A DNA stretch of 64,000 nucleotides, taken from contig JAJZEO010000016.1 of assembly GCA_021847505.1 (NCBI GenBank), positions 12,177-76,176 of the forward strand, in the 5' to 3' direction. Source of the DNA: a bacterium. Its GTDB lineage: Bacteria > Chlamydiota > Chlamydiia > Chlamydiales > 2-12-FULL-49-11. The translations under genes and the position numbers were made by a program. Position 1 is the stretch's first letter. Each line of letters begins with the position of its first letter. Shown one piece after another: positions 61-51,664 of the stretch. The notes under the pieces are model-generated. The model was not told the origin of the DNA and made no database searches. It worked only from the letters and a program-made list of their open reading frames with translations.

Positions 61-822
61 TCAATTTTGATAAGAACTTAGGTAGTTCCTATAAAGAATC
101 AAATAAGCATCCGTTACCACTGTATGGAATTGATGCGATTCAATCACATGACGATTAAAAGTCATGTCCTCACCTAACTTAAAATCAGGCCATTGAAATT
201 GGTCAAATACAGCCCTGGTGATGACAACAACACCATTATGCACCCCATTAGAAATGGAACCATATCTATCAAAAATTGTGGAATAGTCCGACACATAACA
301 ACTATTATGAACTATATCTTGGAGAGAATAATTAGGAAAATTTCCCTCATTCAAAAACAAACGATGGATAAGAAAATCCACCTTATAGTTCTCAAAAAGA
401 TATTTTATGAATTCCATTCTTTGTGGATGAGGAAGATCATCAGCGTCTTGGCAAAGAAGAATATCCCCGGTGCTAGCTCGACATGCAGCATTTCGATTTT
501 CTCCAGGGTATTCATTTTCATCTTCAACGATTTTAACCACAAAGGGGTATTGTTTTGTCAACACGCATTCAATCAAATCAGTAGGAATGTACTTTTTTTG
601 ACTTGTTGTCAGAGAGATAATAAACTCATCAGGTCGAACATGTTGCTGGGCATAGTAATCGATCAGGTCTGGTAATAGATAAAAATGCTTGTAATGACAG
701 GGAACTATTACACTTGTCCTCATGGGTATAGGTATCTCTCGCCGCCCCAATGCAGCAATGAATGGCTGGGTCAGAAATGTAATCACAAAAGCAAGAAAAC
801 TTATTCGAACAAATTTCATCAT
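61..822 (-). CDS. GT-A/GT2-like glycosyltransferase with N-terminal signal peptide or anchor
   Basis: 253-aa ORF. 'SVIVPCH' N-terminal strand and 'QDADDLPHP' DxD motif are typical of GT2-type enzymes. Hydrophobic N-terminus MMKFVRISFLAFVITFL. Confidence 0.6.
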   Translation of the reverse strand: MMKFVRISFLAFVITFLTQPFIAALGRREIPIPMRTSVIVPCHYKHFYLLPDLIDYYAQQHVRPDEFIISLTTSQKKYIPTDLIECVLTKQYPFVVKIVEDENEYPGENRNAACRASTGDILLCQDADDLPHPQRMEFIKYLFENYKVDFLIHRLFLNEGNFPNYSLQDIVHNSCYVSDYSTIFDRYGSISNGVHNGVVVITRAVFDQFQWPDFKLGEDMTFNRHVIESHQFHTVVTDAYLILYRNYLSSYQN

Positions 823-840
823 GGACCTTATGAGTGTTAT

Positions 841-923
841 TCATTTTTCATGCTATCCTATCAGAAAAAGAAAAAATGCGCCCATGTTTTAATTTACAAA
901 GAACGATGCTAGCATGAAAATGA
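841..923. repeat. Imperfect inverted repeat in a divergent promoter region
   Basis: Arm 'tcatttttcatgcta' (841-855) matches the reverse complement of 'tagcatgaaaatga' (910-923) with one extra T. The right arm overlaps the 10-bp palindrome 'atgctagcat'. It lies between divergent GT genes. Confidence 0.3.
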
Positions 924-1030
924 TGTCCCCAAATAAAATCTATTGATTTTTCCCTAAAAACGACTAATATCTTAAACATGCTTATTTGCACAAAACTATT
1001 CTTGATATATGTTAATTTAAGGTAATTTAG

Positions 1031-1924
1031 ATGACTTTAGTGCAGTATCCCTTTAAGGGAATTCTCGTTATTGCTCTTCTCTCAAGAACTCTCTTGCTTT
1101 TCGCGGAAGAACTCTATGATCAACATCAGAAAGTAGGTTGCGTTTATCCCTTTTTAACTCCTATTGCTAACTTTATAGAACCAATAGCAACTCATAGTGA
1201 TTTATCTGGGGTAGACGAAGTAGATTGTATTTATGTAATCAATCTTGATAGACGCACTGATCGATGGCAAAGAATGGAACAAATACTCAATCAAAACTTA
1301 TTACACGCCAATCGCGTCTCAGGTTTTGATGGAAGATACCGACTTACCGAATCTGACATGGATGCAATCGTTGGTCCCTACGGCAGAAGAAATATTAAAA
1401 AGGGGCAAGTAGGTATTGTTATAACCTATTTATCGATTTTAAAACACGCGCTCGATAACAACTTCAATTGCATTTGGGTTATGGAAGATGATGTCGAATT
1501 TCACTGTTCACCCGAATCTATCTCTAAATTTTTAGTCGCTTTATCTAATTTAGACCCAGATTGGGATCTGTTTTATACAAACATAAACCATCGTTATGAA
1601 AATAATTCTCATATTTCTGACTGTCACTGGATACGTCAAGATCAGCGTCCTGATGACCCAACAATTTTGCCAGATCCTGAGTACTTTCCTTCTTTGCAAT
1701 TAGCTAGAACTTGGTTTCATTTAGGTACATCTTCTAGCATTTTCTCCAAAAAAGGAGTTAAAAAAATCTTTGATTTTTTAACACATATATATTTTTGGTC
1801 TGGACTCGATATAGACATCCATCACCTGCCTAATATTCACGAATACATATCCACAATCGATCTTGTTGGCAATTGGCCATTTAGTGATTCCGATACCTGG
1901 CCTAAAGATGATATAGGCAGGTGA
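1031..1924 (+). CDS. GT25-family glycosyltransferase (LgtB/Lic2-like), signal-anchored
   Basis: 297 aa. 'IYVINLDRRTDRWQRM', 'VSGFDG' and 'IWVMEDDVEF' match the GT25 signature. Hydrophobic N-terminal segment GILVIALLSRTLLLF. Confidence 0.75.
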   Translation: MTLVQYPFKGILVIALLSRTLLLFAEELYDQHQKVGCVYPFLTPIANFIEPIATHSDLSGVDEVDCIYVINLDRRTDRWQRMEQILNQNLLHANRVSGFDGRYRLTESDMDAIVGPYGRRNIKKGQVGIVITYLSILKHALDNNFNCIWVMEDDVEFHCSPESISKFLVALSNLDPDWDLFYTNINHRYENNSHISDCHWIRQDQRPDDPTILPDPEYFPSLQLARTWFHLGTSSSIFSKKGVKKIFDFLTHIYFWSGLDIDIHHLPNIHEYISTIDLVGNWPFSDSDTWPKDDIGR

Positions 1925-2133
1925 GAACTTCTTTTTCAAGAAAAATCTTGCAGTTAACTACAAAGCGTGTTGATAACTCTTTCTAGTAATTCAACTCTTC
2001 TTCAGGTAACCAAAATTACTTTAGAGCTTGGACAGAAAAAGATTTCTGTAATTCATAATGATACAAGAAAAGGAGCTCTTTTTAACATCGATCAAACTGT
2101 AGACCTCTTTTATTGATGCACGTGACTTTGTAA

Positions 2134-2835
2134 TTACTTCAAAAGTTCCTTTCTCACAAACACAACATTTCCATGATGTGTATGACATGTTTGTTCCTTA
2201 CAAATCATTGAAAAACCCAATGATTCTAACCAGCTCTTATACTCTTCTAATAAAACAGTCCCTTTGTAAAACTCTAACTCTGAATATTCGGTATAAATGA
2301 CTTTTACAGTGGACAAAATTCGCGGAGAAGCTCTTAACATCTGGCACTCTGCCCCTTGCATGTCAAGATATAAAAAATCCACTTTTTTAACCCCTGTCAT
2401 ATTTGCCCAATCATCCAAAGTAATTATGGGGACCTTCACAACATCACAAAATTCAATTACATCCGACCACACAAATTGATCAGTGGGGGGTAAAAGAGAA
2501 CTTTGTGCATCAAAAGGATTCTCATCTCTAGGATTTTTTTTTGCACTTAAAAAAAAATCTGCAAAACCAGTCATCTCACCTAAAGCTATTTCAAAGGTTT
2601 GAACATTCTGCAAACCAGCGACTCTAGTGCGAAGCTGTTCATACACATCGTGCCTACATTCAAAAGCATAGATTTTACCCTGAGGCCAAAATTTAGCCAT
2701 TTTGTATGTGTCACTACCATCATGCGCACCACAATCAATAATGACAGCATCGGAAGGAACAAATCGACTCGCTACATCAAAAGCATCCCCATAACAACTC
2801 CCCCAGCAAAAAAGAACAAAAATCCAATTTCTCAT
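2134..2835 (-). CDS. FkbM-family SAM-dependent methyltransferase with signal peptide
   Basis: 233 aa. 'VIIDCGAHDGSDTYKMA' and 'DFLYLDMQGAE' match the Methyltransf_21/FkbM pattern. N-terminus MRNWIFVLFCWGSCYG. Confidence 0.7.
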   Translation of the reverse strand: MRNWIFVLFCWGSCYGDAFDVASRFVPSDAVIIDCGAHDGSDTYKMAKFWPQGKIYAFECRHDVYEQLRTRVAGLQNVQTFEIALGEMTGFADFFLSAKKNPRDENPFDAQSSLLPPTDQFVWSDVIEFCDVVKVPIITLDDWANMTGVKKVDFLYLDMQGAECQMLRASPRILSTVKVIYTEYSELEFYKGTVLLEEYKSWLESLGFSMICKEQTCHTHHGNVVFVRKELLK

Positions 2836-2879
2836 GCTAACCTCTTTTTTTAATCTATCCTACTTTAACAGCTATCTCT

Positions 2880-3785
2880 CTATTTTACTACAAAGCCTCT
2901 CTTGTACTTACTAATTTCTTTTTCCCAGTAGTTAATATATAATTTTTCATAATTATATTCCCTATCCTTAAATTCGTCCCATTTTTTTTCTAAATAACTC
3001 TCATCAATGATGTTCCAATCATCGACTATCAAAACAGGTAAGTCTTTAAATAAAGGATCCAGCGAGGAACTCTTTACGACTGGGACAGCCCCCATATACA
3101 ACGCCTCCCAGGTTCTATGAGTATCTATTCCATTTCCTCGTGGTGAAATCACAAACTTTGTTCTTGCCAAGTCGGTTAAATAGGAAAAAAAATCCTTAGA
3201 GCAAGAATAAACACCCCCATTTAACTGTCTGAATAAATTATACACATAAGACCGTTCGTCGGAATAAGTTCCAATGGAGAAATTCATATAAAGCAAATGT
3301 TCTTTGTTGCAATTCTGAAAAAGCGATCTTGCTTCTTTTAGCTTTTGAACATTTCCATGTGGCCAACATCTATTGGCTATTCCAATTGGAATACCTTTAA
3401 GCTTTGGATGGGTAAAGTTTGTTATGTTCTGTGCAAACCAAATTATCACATTGTCATTATCTAAATATCCCTTATATTTATCAGTCACTGGAAGATCTCC
3501 ATTATGTGTGATAAGAATGTAGGGCTGGTTAATTCTTGAATGATAAGAAGCAATAAAATCATCTAAAAGATCTATTTTTACAAAAATGATATCACCAAAT
3601 CTGACTTTAGTTGGCATTAGCGAACGACTTTCTTCATCAAAGACGAAATTTGCAAGCGCACGAAAAGAGTCTCCTGAAATATATGGGGCACTAGAACCTC
3701 TACCGCTCTCAGCATAAATATTTGCCAAAAAACAAACACTTATTATGAAAAAAAATATTTGTTGCTTCGAGCTTACTGATGCCAT
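2880..3785 (-). CDS. Exostosin (GT47)-like glycosyltransferase with signal peptide
   Basis: 301 aa. C-terminal 'KFVISPRGNGIDTHRTWEALYMGAVPVV' matches the exostosin-family motif (pRG..D..R..EAl..G.iPV). N-terminal hydrophobic segment IFFFIISVCFLANIYA. Confidence 0.55.
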   Translation of the reverse strand: MASVSSKQQIFFFIISVCFLANIYAESGRGSSAPYISGDSFRALANFVFDEESRSLMPTKVRFGDIIFVKIDLLDDFIASYHSRINQPYILITHNGDLPVTDKYKGYLDNDNVIIWFAQNITNFTHPKLKGIPIGIANRCWPHGNVQKLKEARSLFQNCNKEHLLYMNFSIGTYSDERSYVYNLFRQLNGGVYSCSKDFFSYLTDLARTKFVISPRGNGIDTHRTWEALYMGAVPVVKSSSLDPLFKDLPVLIVDDWNIIDESYLEKKWDEFKDREYNYEKLYINYWEKEISKYKRGFVVK

Positions 3786-3798
3786 TTATAGTCTCTTT

Positions 3799-4755
3799 TC
3801 ACCTTGCTAGCTTGTAAAAGTGATTCATAGTCTCTACATTCCCTTCTTCTGTGAACACCTCTGAATAGGGCAACTGGGGAAACATTTTTAGTCTATGAGC
3901 GACAATTCCCAATGCTACTTGTTCTGGCCTAGGAGAAAGAAAGCCCTTAAGCTTCCTCATTTTCTCGAAACTATTCTCAAAAAAGAGCCTAGTCCTTTCA
4001 TTTTCCATATTTAATCCAATCAAAGAGGCTTGTATCTGGGGAATTGATGCTCTTTCGTATTCCGTTAAAGAAAATGCCTCAACAACCATGGGGGAGTCAT
4101 GAGCTGCAACTTTTGTTACATGATCAATCAGAAAGTACCCATCTTCCTCCAAATAACGTAGAATCGCATTGAACTTTTCACCAGGAATCACCGCTGAATC
4201 AATCCATATAATATTTTTATATCCCAATCGGTAGGCCTCCCTGATCATACAGAGCTTAAAACTATAGGGAACATGAATAAGAGTTAGAGATCCCCCTTCA
4301 ACGTCAGGCCACCCACCTAGACGATAAAGAAAATGCCCTGTGAAATGGCATTTTTTCAGATATTTTTTAATTCTTGAAATTTTTTCCGTATAGGATGAAT
4401 TCCAACTTCCATAACAAACAACGCAACAATCTCTATAATTTGGATCATCGTTAAACAATATTTTATGCAGTTCAAGATCAATCTCACCGTTATTTCCCAA
4501 CTTTAGATTTCTTGCTCTAAAATCATAACGTAAACCATCAGCTTTAGATGGGATATACCATTCATAGTTAAGCCATTTTAAATAGTCCCTTCTTCCGTTT
4601 AGTAAATAATCTTGAATTAATAAAAAGTCAGCATCTTTAGGAGATTGAATATCAGACACTTTAGCATAGACAACGTCCCAATCATTGATTACGCGTTCAT
4701 TACTATAACAAACATAACTCGACATCAAAATAATTACAACAAAAATGGTTTTCAT
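3799..4755 (-). CDS. Secreted putative nucleotide-diphospho-sugar transferase (GT-A-like), uncharacterised
   Basis: 318 aa with signal peptide MKTIFVVIILMSSYVCYS. 'YSFKLCMIREAYRLGYKNIIWIDSAVIP' resembles the helix plus DxD strand of Nucleotid_trans-type GT-A enzymes. It lies inside the GT cluster. Confidence 0.35.
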   Translation of the reverse strand: MKTIFVVIILMSSYVCYSNERVINDWDVVYAKVSDIQSPKDADFLLIQDYLLNGRRDYLKWLNYEWYIPSKADGLRYDFRARNLKLGNNGEIDLELHKILFNDDPNYRDCCVVCYGSWNSSYTEKISRIKKYLKKCHFTGHFLYRLGGWPDVEGGSLTLIHVPYSFKLCMIREAYRLGYKNIIWIDSAVIPGEKFNAILRYLEEDGYFLIDHVTKVAAHDSPMVVEAFSLTEYERASIPQIQASLIGLNMENERTRLFFENSFEKMRKLKGFLSPRPEQVALGIVAHRLKMFPQLPYSEVFTEEGNVETMNHFYKLAR

Positions 4756-4770
4756 AATAAATCTGCTTCA

Positions 4771-5724
4771 TTAACTACTTGTATCGCTTGTTCGATTAAC
4801 TATTGTATGTGTAATATACGGCTGTGTAAGAACATATTGTCGAATATTGGGAACTAAATGGATGGAAACATCCACATGGGTCCATAGTTCCATTGACTGA
4901 TGAAATTTAATCAGTTTTTCAAGTCCTGATTTTGATATAATCAGTGAATAGGCTCCAATTCTTACATGAATCCTTTCAAAGTCATCTCCAATAAACTCTC
5001 TCTTAAAAAAATAATCCGCGTTAGCTTTTTCCACTTTTGGGTGATGCATTGGCGGTACATGAGTTTGTCTAAGAAATGTTCCATCCCAATTTCTCGTATC
5101 TGGATCTGTATATAAAATATCCCAATCAGGATCTAATTTACTAAGCTTTTCTAATAACTCTGGGATTTTTTCTAGAGGTTGAAAAATCTCAATATCATCT
5201 TCCATTATCCAAATTCTATCGTAACCTTTAAGTATAGCATCTCTCCAAATGGAAAAATGGCTAAGTGCGCAACCAATGGCTCCTAGTGTTAATTCAGTAT
5301 CATATTTTTTTTTCCCTGTTATCTTCCAAAGATCATTTCTTAAGAGCTCCTTACCATTTACAGCTTCTACGCGTGTTGCATTAAAATGATGCTTATGCAT
5401 TAATGCTTCTATTCTCTTCTTTCTCTCGGGCCTGGTAGCAAGATTAATGTAGTAAATTTGGTCAATCCCGCTCACCCCAGAAAATTTTGGCTCATCTTCT
5501 AGAGGAATATCGACAATATGTGCGTCAATCCTAGCATTATAAAACTTAATCTCCCTCTCTTCCGCATATAGAGTTAGACAAATTAAACATGCAGCTAAAG
5601 TTACGGCTCTAGTCATATTAGTTAACATAAAAATTGTCCTCGTAGAGAAAAAAAGTTGTTCCATATTTCCCCCAGGATAGTTAGGAAAATCACTATTAAA
5701 GTCAAATAGATACTCAGAGAACAA
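4771..5724 (-). CDS. GT25-family glycosyltransferase, signal-anchored
   Basis: 317 aa. 'IYYINLATRPERKKRIEALM', 'VEAVNGKEL', 'IWIMEDDIEI' and 'DPDWDILYTD' are GT25 signatures. Hydrophobic segment AVTLAACLICLTLYA. The true start may be an internal Met. Confidence 0.75.
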   Translation of the reverse strand: MFSEYLFDFNSDFPNYPGGNMEQLFFSTRTIFMLTNMTRAVTLAACLICLTLYAEEREIKFYNARIDAHIVDIPLEDEPKFSGVSGIDQIYYINLATRPERKKRIEALMHKHHFNATRVEAVNGKELLRNDLWKITGKKKYDTELTLGAIGCALSHFSIWRDAILKGYDRIWIMEDDIEIFQPLEKIPELLEKLSKLDPDWDILYTDPDTRNWDGTFLRQTHVPPMHHPKVEKANADYFFKREFIGDDFERIHVRIGAYSLIISKSGLEKLIKFHQSMELWTHVDVSIHLVPNIRQYVLTQPYITHTIVNRTSDTSS

Positions 5725-5741
5725 CCTAAATTCTTGTTAAT

Positions 5742-6620
5742 TTAAAATTGCTCATCAATAGGACAAATCGCACTGTAATCAACCTCTTCCCATTGTTGTA
5801 ATATTGAAGGCAAACTAGATTTAAAAGGGAGAGCACGAAAAGCATCTCTCCAAAGGGACATAGCATCATTAGGAGTTTCCTTAAATGCCTCGTGCAAATC
5901 TTTTCGAACTAGAAATAGATTAATAGTAAGACAAACAGGCTCATACCCCATTCTTTTCGCCACCTCTATGTATACTTCTAATGGCTGTTGCCGATTTGCT
6001 AATGCAATTTCTTCACAGACTTCTTGCTTAATTAAAGGGTGCCAAGCTAAATTCGCTTCAATCATTATTACTTTAGGCCTACATTTCAACCCCTTGAGAA
6101 TATAGTAATCAGCCCCATCAACATCAATAGACAAAAAATCGATTTCTCTTTCTGGGAAATACCGTTGATATATTTCATCGAATAGAAGACCATTTTTGTC
6201 ATCCGCCTTATAAGTAACCGCTAACTTCAATGGCATTACCCCAGAATCTCTGGGATAGTTTAAACTAAGTTCATTGTACAAATCTGATGATGGCTCAATC
6301 ATAACTCCTTCCCAGCCACTTTCCCATAAACTTCTGGTATTAGAAATCTCAATCCCATCCATAGCTCCAAATTCTACAAAAAATCCTTTCTCAATTTGAA
6401 GTCTACGAAAAATCTCTTTAATAATTCCTTCTTCGCCATATTGAGAATATTTGCATTCTGCAAATCGATTCAAACTATTAGAAGAAAGTCTCTCAAAATT
6501 TTTTCTTAATTCAGCTTCTGTTGAATCCTTCCATAAATTTACATGTGCAAATACAGGAACACTCAATGGGAGGAAGAGCACTAGTAAATAATTTCTCACA
6601 ACACCATAATATCGATACAA
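5742..6620 (-). CDS. FkbM-like methyltransferase with signal peptide
   Basis: 292 aa. 'YSQYGEEGIIKEIF', 'FFVEFGAMDGIEISNTRSL' and 'DFLSIDVDGADYYIL' fit the family. Paralogue of 13216..14007. Confidence 0.6.
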   Translation of the reverse strand: MYRYYGVVRNYLLVLFLPLSVPVFAHVNLWKDSTEAELRKNFERLSSNSLNRFAECKYSQYGEEGIIKEIFRRLQIEKGFFVEFGAMDGIEISNTRSLWESGWEGVMIEPSSDLYNELSLNYPRDSGVMPLKLAVTYKADDKNGLLFDEIYQRYFPEREIDFLSIDVDGADYYILKGLKCRPKVIMIEANLAWHPLIKQEVCEEIALANRQQPLEVYIEVAKRMGYEPVCLTINLFLVRKDLHEAFKETPNDAMSLWRDAFRALPFKSSLPSILQQWEEVDYSAICPIDEQF

Positions 6621-6650
6621 AACAAACCTCCAATTTATGCAAACAGTTTC

Positions 6651-7517
6651 CTAATTTTCGATTATCCAAGATTTAGGGATCAAATCCTCCGTATTGTGCA
6701 TATCATAGGCTTCCCCAAACCACTTCCTTGGCGCAACTACGAGTTTATTTGGATTGCGATTGAGATAGGCCGCCCACCAGGAATAAGTTGAATTTGCAAT
6801 GATATTACTTTTACAAAGACTCATAAGATACAAATCATGGTAACGATTTTCACCTTCAATAAAAATAATATTTTCTTCTATTCCCGAGAATATGGTTTTG
6901 CACCATTCTATGTTGTTCGAGAAGACAACGAATAAGGACTCTTTAGGAAAATGCTTCATTGCGTTTATATAATATTCTCGTGTGCAATTTGGGTGATAGA
7001 TCTGTTCAGTATCTCGCCTATAGTCACGACAGTGTATGGAAACAGTGTTTGAGTTTTCCAAAATAGGCCCATATTTACTAGTCAGGTAAGAAATAATTTC
7101 CTCTGAAGGGGCAAATATATTTAATACTTTATCCTTGCAATGAATAAAATACTTTTCTGATTGAAAATACCCCCTAAGTAAAACGTTGCGGCTAGGGGGA
7201 ACTTTGCAATAGTGAAAGTATGGTTCATTATATATGCTTCTAATTCTTACGTTGGGGGCATGCCCATTCAGTCTAAAAAAAATTGCTTGAAAATTTTCAG
7301 GAATATTCCATCTTTCATCTGTCAGTAAAGCAGGAAAACAGGGCACTAAACCATTTTCCTCCGAAAACCCAATTGTTGCGGCAATGATGAACATTTGATT
7401 TCCTAGTTCCCCCTGCAACTCGCCAACAACATAATCATCTGCAAATAAAACAAATAGACTAAGTAAGGTTCCTAAAAAAACAAATCCTACTAAACTTTTC
7501 CCTTTTAAAAATTTCAT
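6651..7517 (-). CDS. GT11 alpha-1,2-fucosyltransferase-like, signal-anchored
   Basis: 288 aa. 'GELGNQMFIIAA', 'VSIHCRDYRRD' and 'NSTYSWWAAYLN' correspond to GT11 motifs I-III. Its start overlaps the stop of the downstream GT10 gene by 4 nt (ATGA). Confidence 0.75.
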   Translation of the reverse strand: MKFLKGKSLVGFVFLGTLLSLFVLFADDYVVGELQGELGNQMFIIAATIGFSEENGLVPCFPALLTDERWNIPENFQAIFFRLNGHAPNVRIRSIYNEPYFHYCKVPPSRNVLLRGYFQSEKYFIHCKDKVLNIFAPSEEIISYLTSKYGPILENSNTVSIHCRDYRRDTEQIYHPNCTREYYINAMKHFPKESLFVVFSNNIEWCKTIFSGIEENIIFIEGENRYHDLYLMSLCKSNIIANSTYSWWAAYLNRNPNKLVVAPRKWFGEAYDMHNTEDLIPKSWIIEN

Positions 7518-8670: not shown

Positions 8671-8684
8671 TCGTTGAATGTTTA

Positions 8685-9551
8685 ATGAAAAAGTTTTATA
8701 AGCTGAACCGTCTTTGGTTAGAATTTAACACACTAACAACCGGTTACTTTATGAAGTTAGGTTTCTATTTTTGTTTTGCACTACTAGGGCTATTTGGTAA
8801 TGAAGTCTTACTAGAAGAAAAGAGAATCGTAATTGTTGTTCCTTCGTACAAAAATGAAAAATGGGTTAAACAAAACTTATCTTCCATTTTCAACCAAGAT
8901 TATGTTAATTATCGAGTGATTTATATCGATGATTACTCCCCTGATAACACAGTCCCATTAATAAAATCCCTTGTCAATGAATGGAATTTCGCAGTTAATT
9001 TTACTTTAATAGAAAATAAAGAACGAAAGGGTGCCATGAGAAATTTGTATGAGGCGATTCACAGCTGCGATGACGAAGAGATCGTTGTCACTGTTGATGG
9101 GGATGACTGGCTTGCTCATGATCAGGTCCTCAATCATCTCAATAAAGTCTATTCAAACAAAGATCGACCGGTATGGATTACACACGGAAGTTATCGTGAT
9201 TCAAAAGGAAACCCCGGAATGCAAAATCAAATTACAGATTCGATCATTGAACGAAATGCCTTTCGGGGAAAATGCCGCGTTTCTCATCTCAGAACCTTTT
9301 ATGCTTGGCTTTTTAAAAAGATCCTCATTCAAGACTTAATGTATGAAGGTAAGTTTTTTGAAATGGGCTGGGATTTAGCAATGATGTTTCCAATGCTAGA
9401 AATGGCAGGCCACAGGCAACTTTACATTCCAGAGGTACTGTATATTTATAATGTTCAAAATCCAATCAGCGATTTTGTCAAAAATCCAGATTATCAGATG
9501 AAATTGGATCGATATATTCACAAAAAAAGGAAGTATTGTCCCCTACTGTAA
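8685..9551 (+). CDS. GT2-family glycosyltransferase, signal-anchored
   Basis: 288 aa. 'VIVVPSYKNEKWVKQNLSSIFNQDY', 'YIDDYSPDNT' and 'VTVDGDDWL' are the classical GT2 N-terminal and DxD motifs. Hydrophobic segment MKLGFYFCFALLGLFG (possible true start at 8751). Confidence 0.8.
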   Translation: MKKFYKLNRLWLEFNTLTTGYFMKLGFYFCFALLGLFGNEVLLEEKRIVIVVPSYKNEKWVKQNLSSIFNQDYVNYRVIYIDDYSPDNTVPLIKSLVNEWNFAVNFTLIENKERKGAMRNLYEAIHSCDDEEIVVTVDGDDWLAHDQVLNHLNKVYSNKDRPVWITHGSYRDSKGNPGMQNQITDSIIERNAFRGKCRVSHLRTFYAWLFKKILIQDLMYEGKFFEMGWDLAMMFPMLEMAGHRQLYIPEVLYIYNVQNPISDFVKNPDYQMKLDRYIHKKRKYCPLL

Positions 9552-9591
9552 TTTTAAGGAACCCCCTTAAAATATTAGTGTTATTTTTCTT

Positions 9592-10689
9592 ATGAGATCG
9601 TTTGGCTATATTTGCTTTTTTTTGTCAAATTTAGAGAGTTGTTTCTTATTTTTTTGTCCGTTTTTTTTGTTTCATTTTACTCCCCTCCACAGCAAAACCA
9701 TTTACATATTACCCTTTCCCAGTATAAACTTTGAGACACTTTTTTTTGGGGATTACAAATATAATGACCCGAACAGCCAGGCCAGAGATGAAACTAGCAA
9801 GACTTGGATTTATTTACGAAAGGCCCTCGAAAAAAATAATTTTGCAGTCAAAGCCCCTTGTGAGGAAAGTCCAGGAGATGATGTAACCTATCTGATTTCT
9901 CTTTCAAACATTGATCAGGAAAGCTTAAAGAACTTTTCTCACATTCCAAAAAGTCATCGCTTTCTTTTAGTCTTTGAGCCACCCGTAGTCTCCCTTGAAC
10001 TACATAATCCCTCTCTCGCTGAATATTTCGGGAAAATTTTCACTTTGTTCGACGATGTAATTGATAATGAAACATATTTTAAAATGTTCTTCCCGCAACC
10101 AAGACTAAAGATGATCCAACCAATTGTTGATTGGAGTGAAAAGAAGTTTGCAACACTAATTGCAAATGATAATACCTCGGACCATCCTGATGAACTTTAT
10201 ACAGCTCGAAGAAAGACGATAGATTTTTTTGAACGGGGAAAAATCAAGGGTTTTGATTTATACGGAAATTCACCAAGCTGGGTAAGATATAAAAATTGGA
10301 AGGGCGCAATAAAAAACAAGTGGCCAATTCTTAGAAATTACAAATTTTGCTTTAGCTATGAAAATACCAGGGGCAGGTCAGGTTATATCACAGAAAAAAT
10401 ATTCGATTGTTTTGTCTCTGGGTGTGTCCCTGTATACCTTGGAGCGGATAGTGTAACCCAATACATCCCCAAAAATTGTTTTATTTCCGCAAATGATTTT
10501 TCAAATGAAAAGGAATTACACCGATTTTTAAAAACTATGGATAGAAACACTTATGACAATTATATTCGATCAATCGATGATTTTTTAAAATCAGACCAGG
10601 CCAAACTATTCTCAATTCAACACTTTATAGAAATTATCTTACCCCATGTGGGGGGTGGAGAAGTTGAAAGTGTCCCAATAGATTCCTAA
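9592..10689 (+). CDS. GT10 alpha-1,3/4-fucosyltransferase-like, signal-anchored
   Basis: 365 aa. 'YKFCFSYENTRGRSGYITEKIFDCFVSGCVPVYLG' is the GT10 motif. Paralogue of 7514..8524. Confidence 0.8.
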   Translation: MRSFGYICFFLSNLESCFLFFCPFFLFHFTPLHSKTIYILPFPSINFETLFFGDYKYNDPNSQARDETSKTWIYLRKALEKNNFAVKAPCEESPGDDVTYLISLSNIDQESLKNFSHIPKSHRFLLVFEPPVVSLELHNPSLAEYFGKIFTLFDDVIDNETYFKMFFPQPRLKMIQPIVDWSEKKFATLIANDNTSDHPDELYTARRKTIDFFERGKIKGFDLYGNSPSWVRYKNWKGAIKNKWPILRNYKFCFSYENTRGRSGYITEKIFDCFVSGCVPVYLGADSVTQYIPKNCFISANDFSNEKELHRFLKTMDRNTYDNYIRSIDDFLKSDQAKLFSIQHFIEIILPHVGGGEVESVPIDS

Positions 10690-10696
10690 GAGGAGA

Positions 10697-11692
10697 TTGC
10701 TTTCTTTGAGATTAATTCTAGTTTTTCTTTTTTGTGTGCCTCTTTCAAATCTTCAATGTCTTGAGAAAGCGCCCCACTACATTACTTATTCTTTTAGCGG
10801 TGGACGATTCGGAGATCAATTAGTTTCTTATCTACATGCCAAGTGGATTTCATATAAATTTGGCATTCCATTGTTATTAAAAGAGTTTAGCTATTCTAGT
10901 CAATTATCCTTATCCCAACTAGAGCTTCCATTTTCTTCTGATATAGCAGATCTTGAGGTTATTTACTTACCCCGCCTAGACTCTTTTGCAATCGACACTT
11001 ATATTAACGAATTTTCAAAAAGAGGTCCAGCCATTTTAGAAATTCCTTATTTCCCTCTTTCAGAATTTGAACTCACCAGTCCCCAGAACTACCCTTCATT
11101 CGTTGTTGATTGGAATGACCCAAATTTTAAAAAGGAGCTCCAAAAAAATATTTGTCTGAAAGCTGATCTTGATTTAGTGAAAATTCCTAAACAAAAACTC
11201 TCAGTTGCTATTCACGTCCGGCTTGGAAAAGAATTTGATGGGCCAAATATGGAGAAATATTATCCATTGAAGTTTCCCCCTTTAACTTACTACTTTAAAG
11301 CTTTAAACCACCTTTGTAAATTATTAGATCAAAGGGAACTCTATGTACACCTTTTTTCCGATGACTCTACTACTAACGAACTCATGGCTATTTTCAGAGA
11401 AAAATTCCCCAGAGAAAAATTCCCCATAGAATTTGGGACAAGAGTAGAAAACAATAGCCATTCAAAAAATGTACTCGAAGATTTTTTTTCTCTACAAAAA
11501 TTTGACTGTATAATTCACAGTGAATCAAATTTCTCATTTGTGGCTTCCCTTATTGGGGATTATTGCATAAAAATTCGCCCCAAAGAATTTCACTTTCAAC
11601 AAGGCCAATTAATCATTGATGAAATGCAAATTGATATTGACCACATTTTATTGGAAAAGCGACTTAGTGATCTTTGCAAATCATCGGATTAA
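10697..11692 (+). CDS. Divergent GT11-like / fucosyltransferase-superfamily protein with signal peptide
   Basis: 331 aa. 'SGGRFGDQLVSYLHAKW', 'VAIHVRLGKEFD' and 'HSESNFSFVASLIG' loosely parallel GT11 motifs I-III. The start is a TTG (10697, or in-frame 10706) after an AGGAG. Confidence 0.45.
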   Translation: MLSLRLILVFLFCVPLSNLQCLEKAPHYITYSFSGGRFGDQLVSYLHAKWISYKFGIPLLLKEFSYSSQLSLSQLELPFSSDIADLEVIYLPRLDSFAIDTYINEFSKRGPAILEIPYFPLSEFELTSPQNYPSFVVDWNDPNFKKELQKNICLKADLDLVKIPKQKLSVAIHVRLGKEFDGPNMEKYYPLKFPPLTYYFKALNHLCKLLDQRELYVHLFSDDSTTNELMAIFREKFPREKFPIEFGTRVENNSHSKNVLEDFFSLQKFDCIIHSESNFSFVASLIGDYCIKIRPKEFHFQQGQLIIDEMQIDIDHILLEKRLSDLCKSSD

Positions 11693-11818
11693 AAATGCTA
11701 AAAAGTTTTATTCTTTATTTTTTATTGCCTTATATAGCTGAATTCCCTAAGGAACGATAGTTTGTACCCACGCGAAAATTCCCGCGATTAAAATATTTGA
11801 CCCCAATCTCTTTCCTAA

Positions 11819-12100
11819 ACAAACCCATTAGTTTGGTTTGTCGAAGATGATGTTATCTTCATCTCCTCGGCAGACAAGCTCTATGAATTGGTGGAGAATT
11901 TATCTAAAATCGACCTCGATTGGGATATTCTTTATACAGATCCCAGCACAATTGATTGGGATGGCTTCTCTATAGCAAAGAAAATACTCTTCCCACCCCT
12001 CCATTTGTTGATATTATCGGTAATAACTACTTTCATAGAAGAAAAGTCATTGATGGCACCTTTAAGTCACCCTATCTGGACAAGTGTCGATAATTCACTC
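11819..12100 (+). pseudogene. Truncated and frameshifted GT25 glycosyltransferase remnant
   Basis: The in-frame translation 'VWFVEDDVIFI..LVENLSKIDLDWDILYTDPSTIDWDG' aligns with 'IWIMEDDIEIF..LEKLSKLDPDWDILYTDPDTRNWDG' of ORF 4771..5724. The N-terminal ~170 aa are absent (stop at 11816-11818). Similarity continues in another frame ('NNYFHRRKVIDGTF') after about 12010. Confidence 0.7.
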
Positions 12101-12107
12101 CACTATA

Positions 12108-13208
12108 TTACCACTGTCCTAAATAAATAGGCGAAAGGTGCCCCAAAGTATAAGGCCCTGAAATGCGAGAACTAAATGCTGCTAAATTCTTAGAATGTAC
12201 ATGTAGATTATTAATTCGGTATCCTTTTCCATTATAAATTATGTAAGGAATCCTGCGGTTCTGATCATCTAGGCGCCACTCATATTTAAATTTGCTAGCA
12301 TCAAAGATACAAGCTTCATTGATAAAGCCAGCAGGTGGCCCTCTATGCGTCCCAACTATATATTGACCTAATGCTGCAGCATCAAAGACTGATTGAAAAA
12401 GATCAAAATTACGGCAAAAATCGTATTTATCTGCAGCTTTGTGATGGTGATAACTTTCTAATTCATGCTGATTTTCAACATATTCCGATACAAGTATTGG
12501 CAGATGGTCTATAGCTTTTTGACCTTTAGCCCTCTTGAAAAAAGAGGGGAGCTGCATATCACTTCTATCTAAATGAGCGCAAGCCTCCATAAATTGTGCA
12601 TAGCAAGCCATAGCTTTTAAGTTGTGTATATACAAAAAACCGCATACACAACGTTCATCATTATCAAAAGTAGCTCCAATTCCTTTATATAACGAAGTAA
12701 ATAAGGGGAGGAGTTCTTCCAAATTTACATAAAGCAAATTATCATGTTCCATGTGAAATATGTTCTCTCGCGGCTGCCACTCTAAAAAATCATATAAATA
12801 CAAAAAACGCTCACTATAAACATTCCAATCATGAATATATAGGTGTTCTTTCCAGTTTAGGTGGGTAGGTGTCATAGGGATGTGTTCTAAGGCAACAAGA
12901 TTTACATTAATTGAGGTGTCGATAGGTGAAAATTTTTCGATGAGAGCTTGGTTGGTAAGGAGGATAATTTCACAATTTGGATTAAATAACCTAGCTTGCG
13001 ATAAGGCAATTTCAACATGTGGAGGTAAACTTTCCCCAATATGTACAAAAATAATGGAGTAATTGCTTGAAGCATATAATGTATTGAATAGAAAACATAA
13101 TACCCACCCAAGGCGAAAAGTCTTTGATTGTAAATCTAGAATGATTTTTTTCAAGCTAGTTCTAGCCTCCAATTTGATATGTGAATACAACATAGGATCT
13201 TTGCCCAA
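12108..13208 (-). CDS. Putative GT32-like glycosyltransferase, signal-anchored
   Basis: 366 aa. 'IIFVHIGESLPPHVEIALSQARLFNPNCEIILL' and 'SERFLYLYDFLEW..IFHMEHDNLLY' loosely resemble Gly_transf_sug/GT32 motifs. Hydrophobic segment LGWVLCFLFNTLYA. Weak assignment. Confidence 0.35.
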   Translation of the reverse strand: MGKDPMLYSHIKLEARTSLKKIILDLQSKTFRLGWVLCFLFNTLYASSNYSIIFVHIGESLPPHVEIALSQARLFNPNCEIILLTNQALIEKFSPIDTSINVNLVALEHIPMTPTHLNWKEHLYIHDWNVYSERFLYLYDFLEWQPRENIFHMEHDNLLYVNLEELLPLFTSLYKGIGATFDNDERCVCGFLYIHNLKAMACYAQFMEACAHLDRSDMQLPSFFKRAKGQKAIDHLPILVSEYVENQHELESYHHHKAADKYDFCRNFDLFQSVFDAAALGQYIVGTHRGPPAGFINEACIFDASKFKYEWRLDDQNRRIPYIIYNGKGYRINNLHVHSKNLAAFSSRISGPYTLGHLSPIYLGQW

Positions 13209-13215
13209 TTCATTC

Positions 13216-14007
13216 TTACTGATTTAGCAATTTCCCTGCGCTCGTATAAATTCTATCTTTTGTATCTTTATGATGTCCGCCATTTTTTTCAGCCCCATGC
13301 CCACCATAGCGTGGTTTTTTATACAAAGCGTCAACATTTCCCATGTTCTTGAACTTTAAGCCCAGGCTATCAATTAGGTCATTTCTCAAAAAAAACAAAT
13401 TTACACCATTATTTTCCATATACACTAAGGTATAGCCCTTCATTTTTCCTAGTTTGTAAAGCGCTAATACTGATGCTCCATAATAATTTCCTCCATCCCA
13501 ACGACCATTTGGATCATAGAAAACGACAAGATCCTCTTGAGGATAATGTGTTGCATTACATTCAATACAAACTACTTTTGGACGATATTTTTCAGGAAAC
13601 GCTCGCCAAACATAAAAATCATTGAAATCTATATCTATAGATACAAAATCTATATCTTCTGGAACATTATATTTAGCAAGAAGGTCCCCAATGTTTTCTG
13701 CTGTTATAAATTCTTTATACAAACCAATTCCCACATTTTCATGATCTCCATCCCATTGAACACCAGACCATTTTTTATCTCTTAAATTGGCTACGTTACT
13801 AGTAGTTATTCCATCAAAGCCACCAAATTCTAAGTAAAAATGTGAAGTAGGAGGAATAAGGTTGAATAATTCCTCTATTACCCCATCTTCTCCTTGTTGG
13901 CTATAAATTGACCGTTCATAATTGCCTAAATCAATTTCTTCCGCGGAATACACAGCGATGCTGATAAAATTAAAAATTAAGAGACAATATTTCAGTCCTT
14001 TTTCCAT
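13216..14007 (-). CDS. FkbM-like methyltransferase with signal peptide
   Basis: 263 aa. 'YSQQGEDGVIEELF', 'FYLEFGGFDGITTSNVANL' and 'DFVSIDIDFNDFYV' fit the family. Paralogue of 5742..6620. Overlaps the upstream gene by 16 nt. Confidence 0.6.
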   Translation of the reverse strand: MEKGLKYCLLIFNFISIAVYSAEEIDLGNYERSIYSQQGEDGVIEELFNLIPPTSHFYLEFGGFDGITTSNVANLRDKKWSGVQWDGDHENVGIGLYKEFITAENIGDLLAKYNVPEDIDFVSIDIDFNDFYVWRAFPEKYRPKVVCIECNATHYPQEDLVVFYDPNGRWDGGNYYGASVLALYKLGKMKGYTLVYMENNGVNLFFLRNDLIDSLGLKFKNMGNVDALYKKPRYGGHGAEKNGGHHKDTKDRIYTSAGKLLNQ

Positions 14008-15011
14008 GTAATATCCTCCATATGTAGAGACAATGTATTTTTGTTAACTTTAGCAACCCATACTTCATGATTATCTAATCCATATACAATATAGATATCC
14101 TCTCCTCTCATTAGAAGCCCCCCTGGATAAACAACTCTTGATGGCCCCCATCCCCACTTAGCGACATATATAGGCCATCTATAAAAATTGTCTCCTATAA
14201 GAGGAATTTTACTTATTTTTTTTGGCAAAAATGGGTAATGTGCAGAAAATATGAGTGCCCCCATAAAAAATTGTCGAATCTCTCCAAGCCAGGTGTTAGA
14301 ATGGAAAAAGGTTAGATATTCATCATCATTGATTAGTATAGCAGGAGTCCCTCCGCGCAGACCATTAGAGTCCGCCCATTCCCAATCAATTCTTCGGTGA
14401 TCTGTCGACATTGTTACTGTGCTATTTGTTCCTAAAAGAATTTGTAAAACACGGAAGGGCTCTGTATTATAGATACAGCAAAGTTCCCCTAAATGCTGAA
14501 ATGGAGACCAATTTTTTTCTACACGCCCCTCTCCTCGGACGAAATCATATTTGAAAAAGGGTTCTGGTTTAATGTAAAAATGTTCTCCATCAGAAGTAAT
14601 TTCACCCACATGCATTGTTCGTGGTCCACAACCCGATGGCGTTCTATCGTCATTAAAAAAAGCATACAATTTATCTCCAACAACTATCAATCTTGCATCT
14701 TCTGCTCTAGATGGAACCTGGGGATCATTAAATCTTGTTTCTAATAACTGAGGAGTTCCAATTGGATTAAAATTATCATCCAATTTAACCAGACCAATGT
14801 AACTTTCTTCCCCATTATGCTCTCGAAAACTTAATAGTAAATTTCCACTCCAATAGGCAATTGAAGGGTTAAGCGCATTTCGATAATGCGGGATTTTAAT
14901 TCTCTTTTCTTCTGTTACTAGGCGGGGCAATTCATCAATTGGTGTTGCATAACTAACATTCATCCTCAACAACAGCCCAAACAAAAGAATCTGTTTCACC
15001 TTTAATTTCAT
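13992..15011 (-). CDS. Secreted beta-propeller glycosidase/phosphorylase-like protein (DUF377/GH130-like?), uncertain
   Basis: 339 aa with signal peptide MKLKVKQILLFGLLLRMNVSYA. 'NPSIAYWSGNLLLSFRE', 'AEDARLI' and 'EKNWSPF' recur in the way beta-propeller blade motifs do. The family call is tentative. Confidence 0.3.
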   Translation of the reverse strand: MKLKVKQILLFGLLLRMNVSYATPIDELPRLVTEEKRIKIPHYRNALNPSIAYWSGNLLLSFREHNGEESYIGLVKLDDNFNPIGTPQLLETRFNDPQVPSRAEDARLIVVGDKLYAFFNDDRTPSGCGPRTMHVGEITSDGEHFYIKPEPFFKYDFVRGEGRVEKNWSPFQHLGELCCIYNTEPFRVLQILLGTNSTVTMSTDHRRIDWEWADSNGLRGGTPAILINDDEYLTFFHSNTWLGEIRQFFMGALIFSAHYPFLPKKISKIPLIGDNFYRWPIYVAKWGWGPSRVVYPGGLLMRGEDIYIVYGLDNHEVWVAKVNKNTLSLHMEDITWKKD

Positions 15012-15060
15012 TTTGTCCCACTTTTTTCTTTCTACAATCAGAACGGTTGAATTTTCTAAA

Positions 15061-15879
15061 TTACAGGGCTTTTTCTAAATAAAAGACAGGTTGAATACAA
15101 TAACCAAGAGGTGCATCGAAAAGACTTTCTGAAAAACCATAAGATTTTCCTACCTTCCAACCCTCAAATAACATCGGAAGTCTAATAGGTCCATAAATTC
15201 GATGAGCATTCCAGGCTACCGCATCTTTACCAACTGGAAAAGCAATTAACATAAATCCCTCGTCCTTTAAGAAAGATTTTTTAGCTAACTTCATAAAATC
15301 AAAGTCCCCATTGGGATTTAAGGGGTCACCATATCTGCCCAAACCATCGTGTTCAATACTAGAGATAGATAAAATGACGTCAAATTGTATGGGCTGTTTT
15401 ACATATTCCCCGAAAGTCAAAATCTCTAACCTTGGATCATCGGAGACAATTCTATTGTATTCTATAGTAAAGGGGATACCACCGAATGCAAGCACAATAG
15501 CCTCGTACCAAGGTGTGGTAGAACCTATTATCCCAACAGTTTTACCTTCGATAGAGTGTTCTCTAATTGCCGCATAAAGCCAGCTGTCTGTTTCACCATA
15601 ATAGTTTTGTTGGCCTTGTAAAACCTTGATAATATAACTATCTATAAGTTCCCTAGAGTACATTAAGGGTTCAGTAGACGAATAGGTTCCATCCATGTAA
15701 TAATCAATAACTGGGATTGCACAATTTAAAGTGTATTCATTAAAGAGGTCACTCGGGATCTCCCTTGGGGGGGCAGAATATAAATTACAGAAAAAGCAGC
15801 CTTGAAAAATGAAAAATGAACTAACCAACTTCAAAACTATTTGGGTCATAAAATATTCCTTAATAGAAATGCTTAACAC
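15061..15879 (-). CDS. DUF268-type SAM-dependent methyltransferase-like protein, signal-anchored
   Basis: 272 aa. 'GKTVGIIGSTTPWYEAIVLAFGG', 'TIEYNRI' and 'SSIEHDGLGRYGDPLNPNGDFDFM' match my recollection of the DUF268 family (nematodes plus scattered bacteria). Hydrophobic segment LVSSFFIFQGCFFCNLYSA. Confidence 0.55.
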   Translation of the reverse strand: MLSISIKEYFMTQIVLKLVSSFFIFQGCFFCNLYSAPPREIPSDLFNEYTLNCAIPVIDYYMDGTYSSTEPLMYSRELIDSYIIKVLQGQQNYYGETDSWLYAAIREHSIEGKTVGIIGSTTPWYEAIVLAFGGIPFTIEYNRIVSDDPRLEILTFGEYVKQPIQFDVILSISSIEHDGLGRYGDPLNPNGDFDFMKLAKKSFLKDEGFMLIAFPVGKDAVAWNAHRIYGPIRLPMLFEGWKVGKSYGFSESLFDAPLGYCIQPVFYLEKAL

Positions 15880-51661: not shown

Positions 51662-51664
51662 GGG

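Follow-up and report, generated by a model that had tools for sequence, protein, structure and literature searches.

A low-GC island of glycan-enzyme genes next to uvrB

The window analyzed here (the whole 64,000-nucleotide stretch, positions 12,177 to 76,176 of contig JAJZEO010000016.1 in GenBank assembly GCA_021847505.1) comes from an environmental chlamydia. Its first 15.9 kb belong to a horizontally acquired low-GC cassette, an island that encodes about 17 sugar-adding and sugar-methylating enzymes. The N-terminal signals carried by these proteins are a real, statistically strong and evolutionarily conserved feature, and they are the main subject of this report. The island is seated between uvrB and topA, is about 17–18 kb long and comprises 17 intact genes and one remnant of a family GT25 glycosyltransferase (GT). 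The GC content is 35.4% in the 1–15.9 kb interval and 44.5% in the other 48 kb. The 17th gene lies past the window start; other assemblies of the same organism reveal it as a GT2+GT25 fusion with the hydrophobic N-terminus MMFFSVILTAFNIHSG, after which topA–SWIB forms the far boundary of the island. The exact leftmost protein of the window is carried by short contigs only, and the contig of the metagenome-assembled genome (MAG) GCA_027365995.1 ends inside the island. Neither an integrase nor a tRNA gene was found at the island boundary in the window, and a tblastn search of plasmids with DUF268 returned zero matches and thus no sign of plasmid carriage.

At least nine Leloir-type glycosyltransferases are encoded: three with a GT2 domain, three with a GT25 domain, two of family GT10, one of GT11 and one GT8-like, the fusion gene beyond the window start, which carries both domains, being included in the GT2 and in the GT25 count. 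They are joined by two candidate transferases (one GT47-like, one with a weak GT11-like motif), four proteins resembling methyltransferases dependent on S-adenosylmethionine (SAM; three FkbM, one DUF268), one GH130-like protein and one protein without a family. The genes in the window are listed below with their lengths in amino acids (aa) and the Pfam E-values from a scan of the window open reading frames (ORFs); a slash marks the predicted cleavage site.

61..822, minus strand: GT2a, GT2 glycosyltransferase, 253 aa; PF00535, E=9e-11; N-terminus MMKFVRISFLAFVITFLTQPFIAALG/RREIP
1031..1924, plus strand: GT25a, GT25 glycosyltransferase, 297 aa; PF01755, E=3e-10; signal MTLVQYPFKGILVIALLSRTLLLFA/EE
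2134..2835, minus strand: FkbMa, FkbM-type SAM methyltransferase, 233 aa; PF05050, E=4e-17; signal MRNWIFVLFCWGSCYG/DA
2880..3785, minus strand: putative GT47/exostosin- or RXYLT1-like transferase, 301 aa; signal MASVSSKQQIFFFIISVCFLANIYA/ES
3799..4755, minus strand: protein of unknown family, 318 aa; signal MKTIFVVIILMSSYVCYS/NE
4771..5724, minus strand: GT25b, GT25 glycosyltransferase; PF01755, E=2e-24; signal MTRAVTLAACLICLTLYA/EE, from an internal start
5742..6620, minus strand: FkbMb, FkbM-like methyltransferase, 292 aa; PF05050, E=3e-9; signal MYRYYGVVRNYLLVLFLPLSVPVFA/HV
6651..7517, minus strand: GT11, alpha-1,2-fucosyltransferase family, 288 aa; PF01531, E=8e-28; signal MKFLKGKSLVGFVFLGTLLSLFVLFA/DD
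7514..8524, minus strand: GT10a, alpha-1,3/4-fucosyltransferase family, 336 aa; PF00852, E=2.5e-17; hydrophobic N-terminus MANWFVISFWNLLIVSFFQLSISA
8685..9551, plus strand: GT2b, GT2 glycosyltransferase, ORF of 288 aa; PF00535, E=3e-20; signal MKLGFYFCFALLGLFG/NE, read from an internal Met at codon 23
9592..10689, plus strand: GT10b, GT10 family, 365 aa; PF00852, E=5e-17; N-terminus long, Phe/Cys-rich and hydrophobic, ending FHFTPLHS/KT
10697..11692, plus strand: unassigned protein, 331 aa; signal MLSLRLILVFLFCVPLSNLQC/LE
11888..12130, plus strand: GT25 remnant (pseudogene fragment), ORF of 80 aa; LSKIDLDWDILYTDP resembles LSKLDPDWDILYTDP of GT25b
12108..13208, minus strand: GT-A-fold, retaining GT8-type-like glycosyltransferase; hydrophobic segment LGWVLCFLFNTLYASS after a long basic n-region
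13216..14007, minus strand: FkbMc, FkbM-like methyltransferase paralogue, 263 aa; signal MEKGLKYCLLIFNFISIAVYS(A)/EE
13992..15011, minus strand: GH130/DUF377-like beta-propeller (mannoside phosphorylase/hydrolase superfamily), 339 aa; signal MKLKVKQILLFGLLLRMNVSYA/TP
15061..15879, minus strand: DUF268, SAM-methyltransferase-like; PF03269, E=1e-27, 97.3 bits against a cut-off of 25
15935..17935, minus strand: uvrB, the core-genome boundary of the island

Four N-termini had been quoted in a preliminary description of this DNA (those of 3799–4755, 6651–7517, 13992–15011 and 13216–14007); all four were exact, and the ORFs are present where it had placed them. Both fucosyltransferase families score above the Pfam cut-off of 23.9 bits, GT11 with 97.9 bits for PF01531 and GT10a and GT10b with 63.5 and 62.6 bits for PF00852. 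A sequence search of the PDB gave no solved relative for GT11; the best match of GT10a was human FUT9 (E=2e-12), ahead of the Helicobacter pylori FucT (E=2e-6). The GT10a segment FCYAFENYLNNDGYITEKIFD aligned to FUT9, the donor-binding region FxxxFENxxxxxYxTEK is intact, and so are the nucleotide-sugar catalytic motifs of the protein. FkbMc is related to the FkbM-like protein at 5742–6620 with a BLASTP E-value of 4e-20.

Start codons needed attention in several genes. GT25a has a single Arg within its hydrophobic region, and its next ATG, at codon 82, lies past the domain start at residue 67. GT25b likely starts internally, near 5628 or 5616, and the gene call at L001 is 285 aa long (comparison loci are designated by L numbers). 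The true start of 12108–13208 is probably downstream of that of the longest ORF. DUF268 likely starts at 15849, with MTQIVLKLVSSFFIFQGCFFCNLYS/APPREIP and a gene call of 262 aa, so that its domain begins right after the signal. We know of no member of the DUF268 family with a demonstrated function.

The less readily classified proteins were examined further, and PDB sequence searches with five unassigned proteins gave nothing useful. The product of 2880–3785 matches PF03016 (6.5e-5) and PF24785 (9e-5), both under the Pfam cut-off; its orthologues bear signals in L029 and L078, and the one in L028 was not scored by the heuristic described below. For 3799–4755 there were zero Pfam or PDB matches and a single-sequence AlphaFold2 model was unusable, with a predicted local distance difference test (pLDDT) score of 36; orthologues with signals are present in L029, L028 and L044. 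The protein at 10697–11692 had zero matches in Pfam, the PDB and a profile search. It contains an HxR and a C-terminal motif that can be weakly aligned with GT11, for which hhalign was not significant, and has homologues in L005, L029, L055 and L060. The ORF at 11888–12130, between this gene and 12108–13208, resembles the middle of a GT25 protein and by that resemblance is a decayed third GT25 copy.

The product of 12108–13208 is confidently modeled as a GT-A fold resembling UDP-sugar enzymes. The AlphaFold2 model of its GT-A domain has a pLDDT of 91, and E154 and D156 are nearly invariant in the family. Foldseek returned glycogenin, XXYLT1, LARGE1 and SetA at E of about 4e-7, with template modeling scores of just 0.35–0.5 and 12–14% identity, and the fold neighbors also include YeGT. 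The family counts 1221 representatives at 50% identity, some of them fused to a second domain and 570–990 aa long; no Pfam model covered it in 30 members scanned, and sequence and profile searches found no solved relative. The GH130-like protein has no direct Pfam match at E<=0.01, while about two-thirds of the homologues listed carry a precomputed PF04041 assignment; among the matches listed, E-values reach down to 1e-62 at 36–42% identity.

Signal-like segments at the N-termini

Every one of the 16 intact island ORFs in the window opens with a hydrophobic segment. In a lenient test requiring an uncharged hydrophobic 9-mer (Kyte–Doolittle hydropathy >=1.8) near the N-terminus, all 16 island ORFs were positive versus 16 of 40 ORFs in the rest of the window (Fisher p=1.5e-5), and this background includes true membrane proteins, lipoproteins and porins. 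A stricter heuristic based on the n-, h- and c-regions of signal peptides flagged 14/16 island ORFs versus 12/40 of the others (p=2e-4); each of the two island ORFs missed has one Arg inside the h-region. Porins and a solute-binding lipoprotein were flagged correctly by the strict heuristic, DapA and a polyprenyl synthase wrongly. Two tandem porin genes of the Legionella_OMP family with signal peptides (34008–36412, minus strand) served as its positive controls.

The n-region carries a net charge of at least +1 in 14 of the 16 proteins, and the uncharged stretch formed by the h- plus c-region is 9–26 residues long (median 16, mostly 14–20). A basic n-region followed by 15–20 hydrophobic residues had been attributed to all 16 proteins in the preliminary description; the hydrophobic part holds throughout, but two proteins have no basic n-region and two have just nine uncharged residues. 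A site with small residues at positions -3 and -1 was found in 15 proteins, and in the sixteenth it was identified by eye as VSYA/TP. The segments end mostly in YA, FA, SA, YS or FG, acidic residues often come next (FA/DD, YA/EE, SA/EE), and the net charge of the 15 residues after the segment is zero or negative in 14/16. None of the island proteins has a second transmembrane (TM) segment. Conserved domains begin 0–40 residues past the segment, with the PPREIP motif of DUF268 at +1 and the GT2 domains about 11–12 residues past the site.

With this profile, the segments look like cleavable signal peptides of the Sec/signal peptidase I (SPase-I) type. The shortness of the uncharged stretch, the small residues at -3/-1 and the acids that follow argue against type II anchors with a stem region, and the n/h/c anatomy together with the charge asymmetry favors an N-in/C-out orientation, in which the catalytic domain is predicted to be exoplasmic. 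Lipoprotein and Tat targeting were also considered and were ruled out, as the island N-termini read contain neither an L-x-x-C lipobox nor, in their n-regions, any RR.

In most of the genes, the stretch that separates the hydrophobic segment from the domain's first conserved residues contains no alternative start codon, so the segment cannot be skipped and is an obligatory part of the protein. GT2a, which has an ATG at codon 34, is an exception, and GT10a may be another. Independent gene calls in other assemblies of the same organism place the starts at identical or nearly identical positions.

Distribution of the signal among homologues

The signal is conserved among homologues of the island enzymes and restricted to Chlamydiae and Dependentiae. 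A search with DUF268 identified 1599 homologues, of which the named ones come nearly all from Chlamydiae MAGs, with one labeled Thermodesulfobacteriota. All 25 sequences sampled from them have a signal-like N-terminus; these N-termini are divergent in sequence and stop just before a near-invariant PPRxIP motif. Scanning 185,579 species genomes for DUF268 yielded 80 loci, and a hydrophobic segment stood right upstream of the motif at 25/26 chlamydia-labeled loci, 2/2 Dependentiae loci and 3/4 loci labeled 'Verrucomicrobia', as opposed to 5/35 loci from other phyla, only one of these five being convincing by eye. The DUF268 ORF of Planctomycetes, Omnitrophota, Desulfovibrionales, Spirochaetota and other groups opens directly with M..PPRxIP.

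Other families follow the same pattern. Among GT10 homologues, the signal is present in 53/60 sequences at ranks 1–60 and in 15/60 at ranks 61–120 (p=1e-12), and the N-terminus is hydrophobic in 37 of 43 GH130-like homologues. The signal is kept as a physicochemical pattern, not as a sequence, in hundreds of chlamydial homologues, and signal-bearing homologues are also present in genomes of 45–54% GC. The proposal of the preliminary description that these N-termini are of the export type is thus borne out: they obey the positive-inside rule, are conserved in chlamydial homologues and are missing from the versions of free-living bacteria.

At loci with a signal-bearing DUF268, the signal was found in 51/62 neighbors belonging to island families versus 116/443 other ORFs (p=2e-17). 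When 150 signal-positive neighbors were classified with Pfam, the assignments were mainly FkbM, Methyltransf_24, GT11, GT2, GT10, GT92, GT17 and GT25; for the 143 nearest signal-negative neighbors, GT4 was the sole glycosyltransferase family listed, together with housekeeping genes. Signal-less glycosyltransferases coexist with the signal-bearing ones, namely GT9 and GT4 in L006 and L039 and a PF03407 protein at 43799–44470 of the window, so the signal is not a generic chlamydial feature. On these comparisons, it is a selected, lineage-specific attribute of one class of glycan enzymes in these intracellular lineages.

Outside the chlamydiae, DUF268 and GT10 have their nearest relatives among bacterial or archaeal proteins, which are signal-less; an addition within bacteria, rather than inheritance from eukaryotes, therefore seems to be the origin of the signal. 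That it came with a recent transfer from eukaryotes to chlamydiae was rejected on the same grounds, the closest outgroup homologues being prokaryotic and without signals. No earlier account of glycosyltransferases with such signals in Chlamydiae or Dependentiae came to light in the searchable literature.

Related islands and the uvrB flank

Many chlamydial genomes contain islands of a comparable kind, with signal-bearing GT10/11/17/25/92, FkbM and DUF268 genes, and these sister islands add the families GT17, GT92, GT23-like and GT32. Faint TcdA_TcdB matches were obtained in one of them. The closest relative of the window island is in L029, with 12 consecutive signal-type genes, several of which are 38–63% identical to window genes. 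There (L029:36-17206), a 13-kb signal-type glycan island of 39% GC, in a flank of 45%, is flanked by an orthologue of the PF03407 glycosyltransferase on one side and by purB/thrS on the other. In the window, the signal-less PF03407 gene (nucleotide-diphospho-sugar transferase, 43799–44470, minus strand) adjoins thrS (44471–46790), and the threonyl-tRNA synthetases of the window genome and L029 are 62% identical. With one island beside PF03407/thrS and the other beside uvrB, this type of island occupies different chromosomal sites.

Two further DUF268 loci also abut uvrB, one in a Parachlamydiales MAG (L039, 372–19860) and one in a Rhabdochlamydiaceae MAG (L021, 5616–20569), and their UvrB is 67% identical to that of the window. 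These loci hold two membrane proteins of the Wzy_C/O-antigen-ligase family and a 10-TM protein, alongside signal-less GT9, three GT4, Gmd and a ManC-like protein; signal-bearing FkbM, Methyltransf_24, DUF268 and GT17 genes are interleaved with the signal-less ones. The uvrB flank looks like a recurrent surface-glycan locus in chlamydiae. This mixture of genes links the exported enzymes to an envelope glycan, and conventional cytoplasmic assembly can feed that glycan.

The remainder of the window is chlamydial core genome, with uvrB, thyX, recA, thrS, GreA, porins and Inc-like ORFs. The uvrB gene (15935–17935) has 52.7% GC in surroundings of 44%, with a GC skew of +0.25 and an AT skew of -0.23 on the plus strand, and carries long antisense ORFs such as 16016–17125; a similar skew, +0.28, was measured for RecB/RecD-like genes at 54–58 kb (54000–58000). 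In the 715-aa GreA protein (18493–20640, minus strand), the GreA/GreB domains are confined to residues 566–704, and an N-terminal extension of this length fits a chlamydial origin of the window. Four consecutive ORFs at 50315–53973 on the plus strand (150, 252, 294 and 473 aa) have no Pfam match and contain two close hydrophobic segments each; such paired segments are typical of chlamydial inclusion-membrane (Inc) proteins.

Assembly machinery and donor supply

The Pfam scan detected no phosphoglycosyl transferase, Wzx/Wzy, ABC exporter, ligase or gene for nucleoside diphosphate (NDP)-sugar synthesis, either in the island or in the 48 kb that make up the rest of the window, and no nucleotide-sugar transporter gene was seen. 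The absence of assembly and export machinery, as the preliminary description had put it, stands for the island and the 64-kb window. It need not hold at the level of the genome, given the Wzy_C/ligase, GT4, GT9, gmd and manC-like genes in L039 and L021, and a conventional pathway that hands its glycan to the exported enzymes may be encoded elsewhere in the window genome.

Chlamydiae import host ATP, other nucleotides and SAM via inner-membrane carriers (PMC1951785, PMC5381601, PMC3104491), which means that such metabolites must cross the periplasm. The inclusion of Chlamydia trachomatis receives UDP-glucose, on which secreted glycogen enzymes act (PMC4829429). By analogy, a host origin of the nucleotide sugars and SAM is plausible for the island enzymes.

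Seven NDP-sugar enzymes (short-chain dehydrogenases/reductases of the 4,6-dehydratase, RmlD, Gmd and Fcl types) were found with apparent signal-like extensions of 22–37 residues before Pfam position 1. They lie beside signal-bearing DUF268 genes at L017:5653-7817 and 11973-12992, L018:11737-13676 and L064:7646-9896, these three loci being two Dependentiae and one unclassified. The background of predicted signals in Dependentiae is high, at 44% of coding sequences (PMC6561590), and in a metagenome scan for the signal-bearing 4,6-dehydratase of L018, the closest relative, at 53% identity, had no extension. Exported NDP-sugar enzymes, a weakly supported idea, would place nucleotide sugars outside the cytoplasm.

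Proposed function and alternative explanations

In the textbook scheme of bacterial glycan synthesis, the nucleotide-sugar steps all take place in the cytoplasm, and past the inner membrane only lipid-linked donors are used. We hypothesize that all island enzymes are synthesized with cleavable Sec/SPase-I signal peptides and that the catalytic domains would be delivered to the periplasm or the cell surface, possibly onward to the inclusion lumen. There, the enzymes would extend and O-methylate a fucose- and hexose-containing glycan, with the bacterium's own envelope glycan (a lipooligosaccharide (LOS)/O-antigen-like chain or an outer-membrane glycoprotein) as the most likely acceptor. The donors GDP-fucose, UDP-sugars and SAM would not be made there; they would be host metabolites reaching the periplasm of this obligately intracellular bacterium, just as host nucleotides and SAM reach the inner-membrane importers of chlamydiae. 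To such a mobile cassette of Sec-exported enzymes, extending and methylating glycans past the inner membrane on what is likely an envelope acceptor with donors ultimately from the host, we assign roughly an even chance of being correct; export and cleavage, the compartment, the source of the donors and the acceptor are what we infer from the sequences.

Several observations weigh against this hypothesis. To our knowledge, Leloir glycosyltransferases acting in the bacterial periplasm are almost without precedent. The island holds no source of donors, with about 64 kb of the genome covered, and the Gmd and ManC-like proteins of L039 and L021 are signal-less, which puts GDP-sugars in the cytoplasm, there at least. 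An oxidizing, DsbA-type periplasm would predict a bias toward even numbers of cysteines, and the mature proteins display none (4/16 even, mean 4.5 Cys). The signal calls themselves rest on our own heuristics, with about 20% false negatives and a few false positives. The signal of GT2a is the least certain, having RR right after the segment in addition to its usable ATG, and in GT10a and GT10b the n-region has a net charge of 0 and is not basic. As for the seven extended NDP-sugar enzymes, all have possible internal starts that would give normal cytoplasmic enzymes, and the extensions lie partly in AT-rich DNA, which is able to mimic signals.

An alternative that shares the export step is that the enzymes are secreted effectors, which after Sec export would leave the cell via type II secretion or outer-membrane vesicles and remodel host glycoconjugates in the inclusion lumen or membrane, the host cytosol or the secretory pathway, with host nucleotide sugars as donors, in the manner of glycosylating toxins and effectors. 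We consider this unlikely, even though the families GT10, GT11, GT17, GT92, GT23-like, GT32 and DUF268 act on eukaryotic N-/O-glycans, DUF268 genes of Caenorhabditis elegans belong to gene clusters with a putative role in Golgi glycosylation (PMC7614267, PMC3534327), and SetA, a Legionella effector, and YeGT are among the fold neighbors of the GT8-like protein. The faint TcdA_TcdB matches in a sister island point the same way, the Inc-like window genes indicate an inclusion lifestyle, and bacterial enzymes in the inclusion lumen have a precedent (PMC4829429). Known glycosylating effectors, however, are single enzymes that place one sugar onto a host protein, whereas at least ten co-located glycan-extending transferases and four methyltransferases suggest the stepwise assembly of a complex glycan. 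The interleaving with O-antigen-ligase-family and GT4/GT9 genes in L039 and L021 points to a bacterial acceptor, and no secretion-system gene or host-targeting domain was seen.

Conversely, the topology could be conventional, with the segments as uncleaved anchors or tethers that hold the catalytic domains to the inner membrane on its cytoplasmic side. In that case the enzymes would serve an ordinary undecaprenyl-linked LOS/O-antigen pathway that uses bacterial nucleotide sugars and has its initiating, flipping and ligating genes elsewhere in the genome. All characterized bacterial members of GT2, GT10, GT11 and GT25 known to us act in the cytoplasm, which agrees with this topology, as do the lack of an even-cysteine bias in the mature domains, the atypical n- or c-regions of GT2a, GT10a and GT10b, and the signal-less Gmd and ManC-like proteins that related chlamydiae encode, with GT4, GT9 and Wzy_C-family genes, beside uvrB. 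We nevertheless judge it improbable: a positive n-region and an acidic or neutral flank after the segment in 14/16 proteins predict N-in/C-out, a median stretch of 16 residues ending in small -3/-1 sites is short for a membrane anchor, bona fide cytoplasmic glycosyltransferases of the same genomes have no such segments, and it is hard to explain why free-living homologues are entirely without a tether. It is highly improbable that the segments are artefacts or relics, that is, by-products of AT-rich DNA, consequences of wrong start codons or non-functional leftovers of eukaryote-derived genes. AT-rich codons favor Phe, Ile, Leu and Lys in an island of 35% GC, one GT25 pseudogene fragment is present and three ORFs expose the signal from an internal start only, yet the same feature recurs in homologues from genomes of 45–54% GC, the signal sequences diverge as the physicochemical pattern is kept in hundreds of proteins, the ORFs are intact with conserved catalytic motifs, and most genes have no alternative start. 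The comparative data already refute such a reading in large part.

Returning to extracytoplasmic modification of an envelope glycan, a more far-reaching proposal can be formulated, which we put forward tentatively and hold to be somewhat doubtful. Environmental Chlamydiae, and perhaps Dependentiae, may possess a complete extracytoplasmic Leloir glycosylation and methylation pathway, in which fucosyl-, galactosyl- and hexosyl-transferases, working with SAM methyltransferases and like them soluble and Sec-exported, would draw on GDP-fucose, UDP-sugars and SAM from the host to build eukaryote-like, methylated and fucosylated glycans in the periplasm or the inclusion lumen, making up a bacterial functional analogue of the Golgi on mobile islands. 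If true, exported Leloir transferases and SAM methyltransferases would break the cytoplasm-only rule across a phylum, and the periplasm or vacuole of obligate intracellular bacteria would be supplied with activated sugars and SAM by the host. Eukaryote-like glycans on chlamydial surfaces have long been debated, with reports of N-glycans on the major outer membrane protein cited in PMC13254160, and the island would provide a concrete gene set for them. It would also suggest a variable surface, or host-glycan mimicry, shaping the interactions between symbionts and protists. In addition, the data give DUF268 and the uncurated GT-A family of the GT8-like protein a likely cellular context.

Comparison with known systems

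The families found in the island (GT10, GT11, GT25, GT47-like, GT8-like, DUF268 and FkbM) and in its sisters (GT17, GT92, GT23-like and GT32) largely belong to the secretory pathway of eukaryotes. They are shared with type II enzymes of the eukaryotic Golgi and endoplasmic reticulum (GT10, GT11, GT17, GT23, GT92, GT8) and with the C. elegans DUF268 clusters, and the C. elegans clusters likewise group several transferases with methyltransferases (PMC7614267). GT10a is closer to human FUT9 than to the H. pylori FucT, and the catalytic domains of the island enzymes are predicted to lie on the exoplasmic side, as in the Golgi. The Golgi-like type II arrangement advanced in the preliminary description can be retained for the enzyme families and the predicted sidedness, but not for the anchor architecture: Golgi enzymes have an uncleaved anchor of about 17–25 hydrophobic residues and a stem, whereas the island proteins have cleavable-looking signals and no stem. 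The island also differs from the Golgi in that no gene for a nucleotide-sugar transporter was seen.

Wzx/Wzy- or ABC-dependent O-antigen and LOS clusters are similarly variable, low in GC and rich in glycosyltransferases and methyltransferases. The sister loci at uvrB, with their Wzy_C/ligase-family, GT4, GT9, gmd and manC-like genes, share this likeness, and in free-living bacteria DUF268 adjoins gmd and fcl (L058). In contrast to such clusters, the island lacks an initiating transferase as well as any flippase, polymerase, ligase or sugar-nucleotide gene, and all of its enzymes bear signals.

Among exported bacterial enzymes, clostridial TcdA/B, Legionella Lgt/SetA and YeGT are also GT-A enzymes that act on host UDP-sugars. 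They differ from the island in being single enzymes that mono-glycosylate host proteins and reach them through dedicated systems or uptake domains, whereas the island families extend glycans.

The glycogen enzymes of C. trachomatis offer a likeness within the chlamydiae, as sugar-polymer enzymes that act outside the bacterium on a nucleotide sugar supplied by the host (PMC4829429); UDP-glucose enters the inclusion via host SLC35D2 (PMC4829429). The preliminary description had cited this precedent, which applies to the site of action, the inclusion lumen, but not to the route, which is type 3 secretion rather than Sec (PMC4829429). The glycogen enzymes have no Sec signal peptides and are housekeeping functions, unlike the variable set of fucosyl- and galactosyl-type transferases of the island. 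A Leloir-type enzyme that decorates the bacterium's own surface is known in Lst of Neisseria gonorrhoeae, a sialyltransferase which resides in the outer membrane and modifies the LOS with host CMP-N-acetylneuraminic acid (CMP-NANA; PMC4324315, PMC10827150). Lst is a single enzyme of another family that adds a single sugar in an extracellular pathogen, whereas the island would place a whole multi-enzyme pathway, methyltransferases among it, beyond the cytoplasm.

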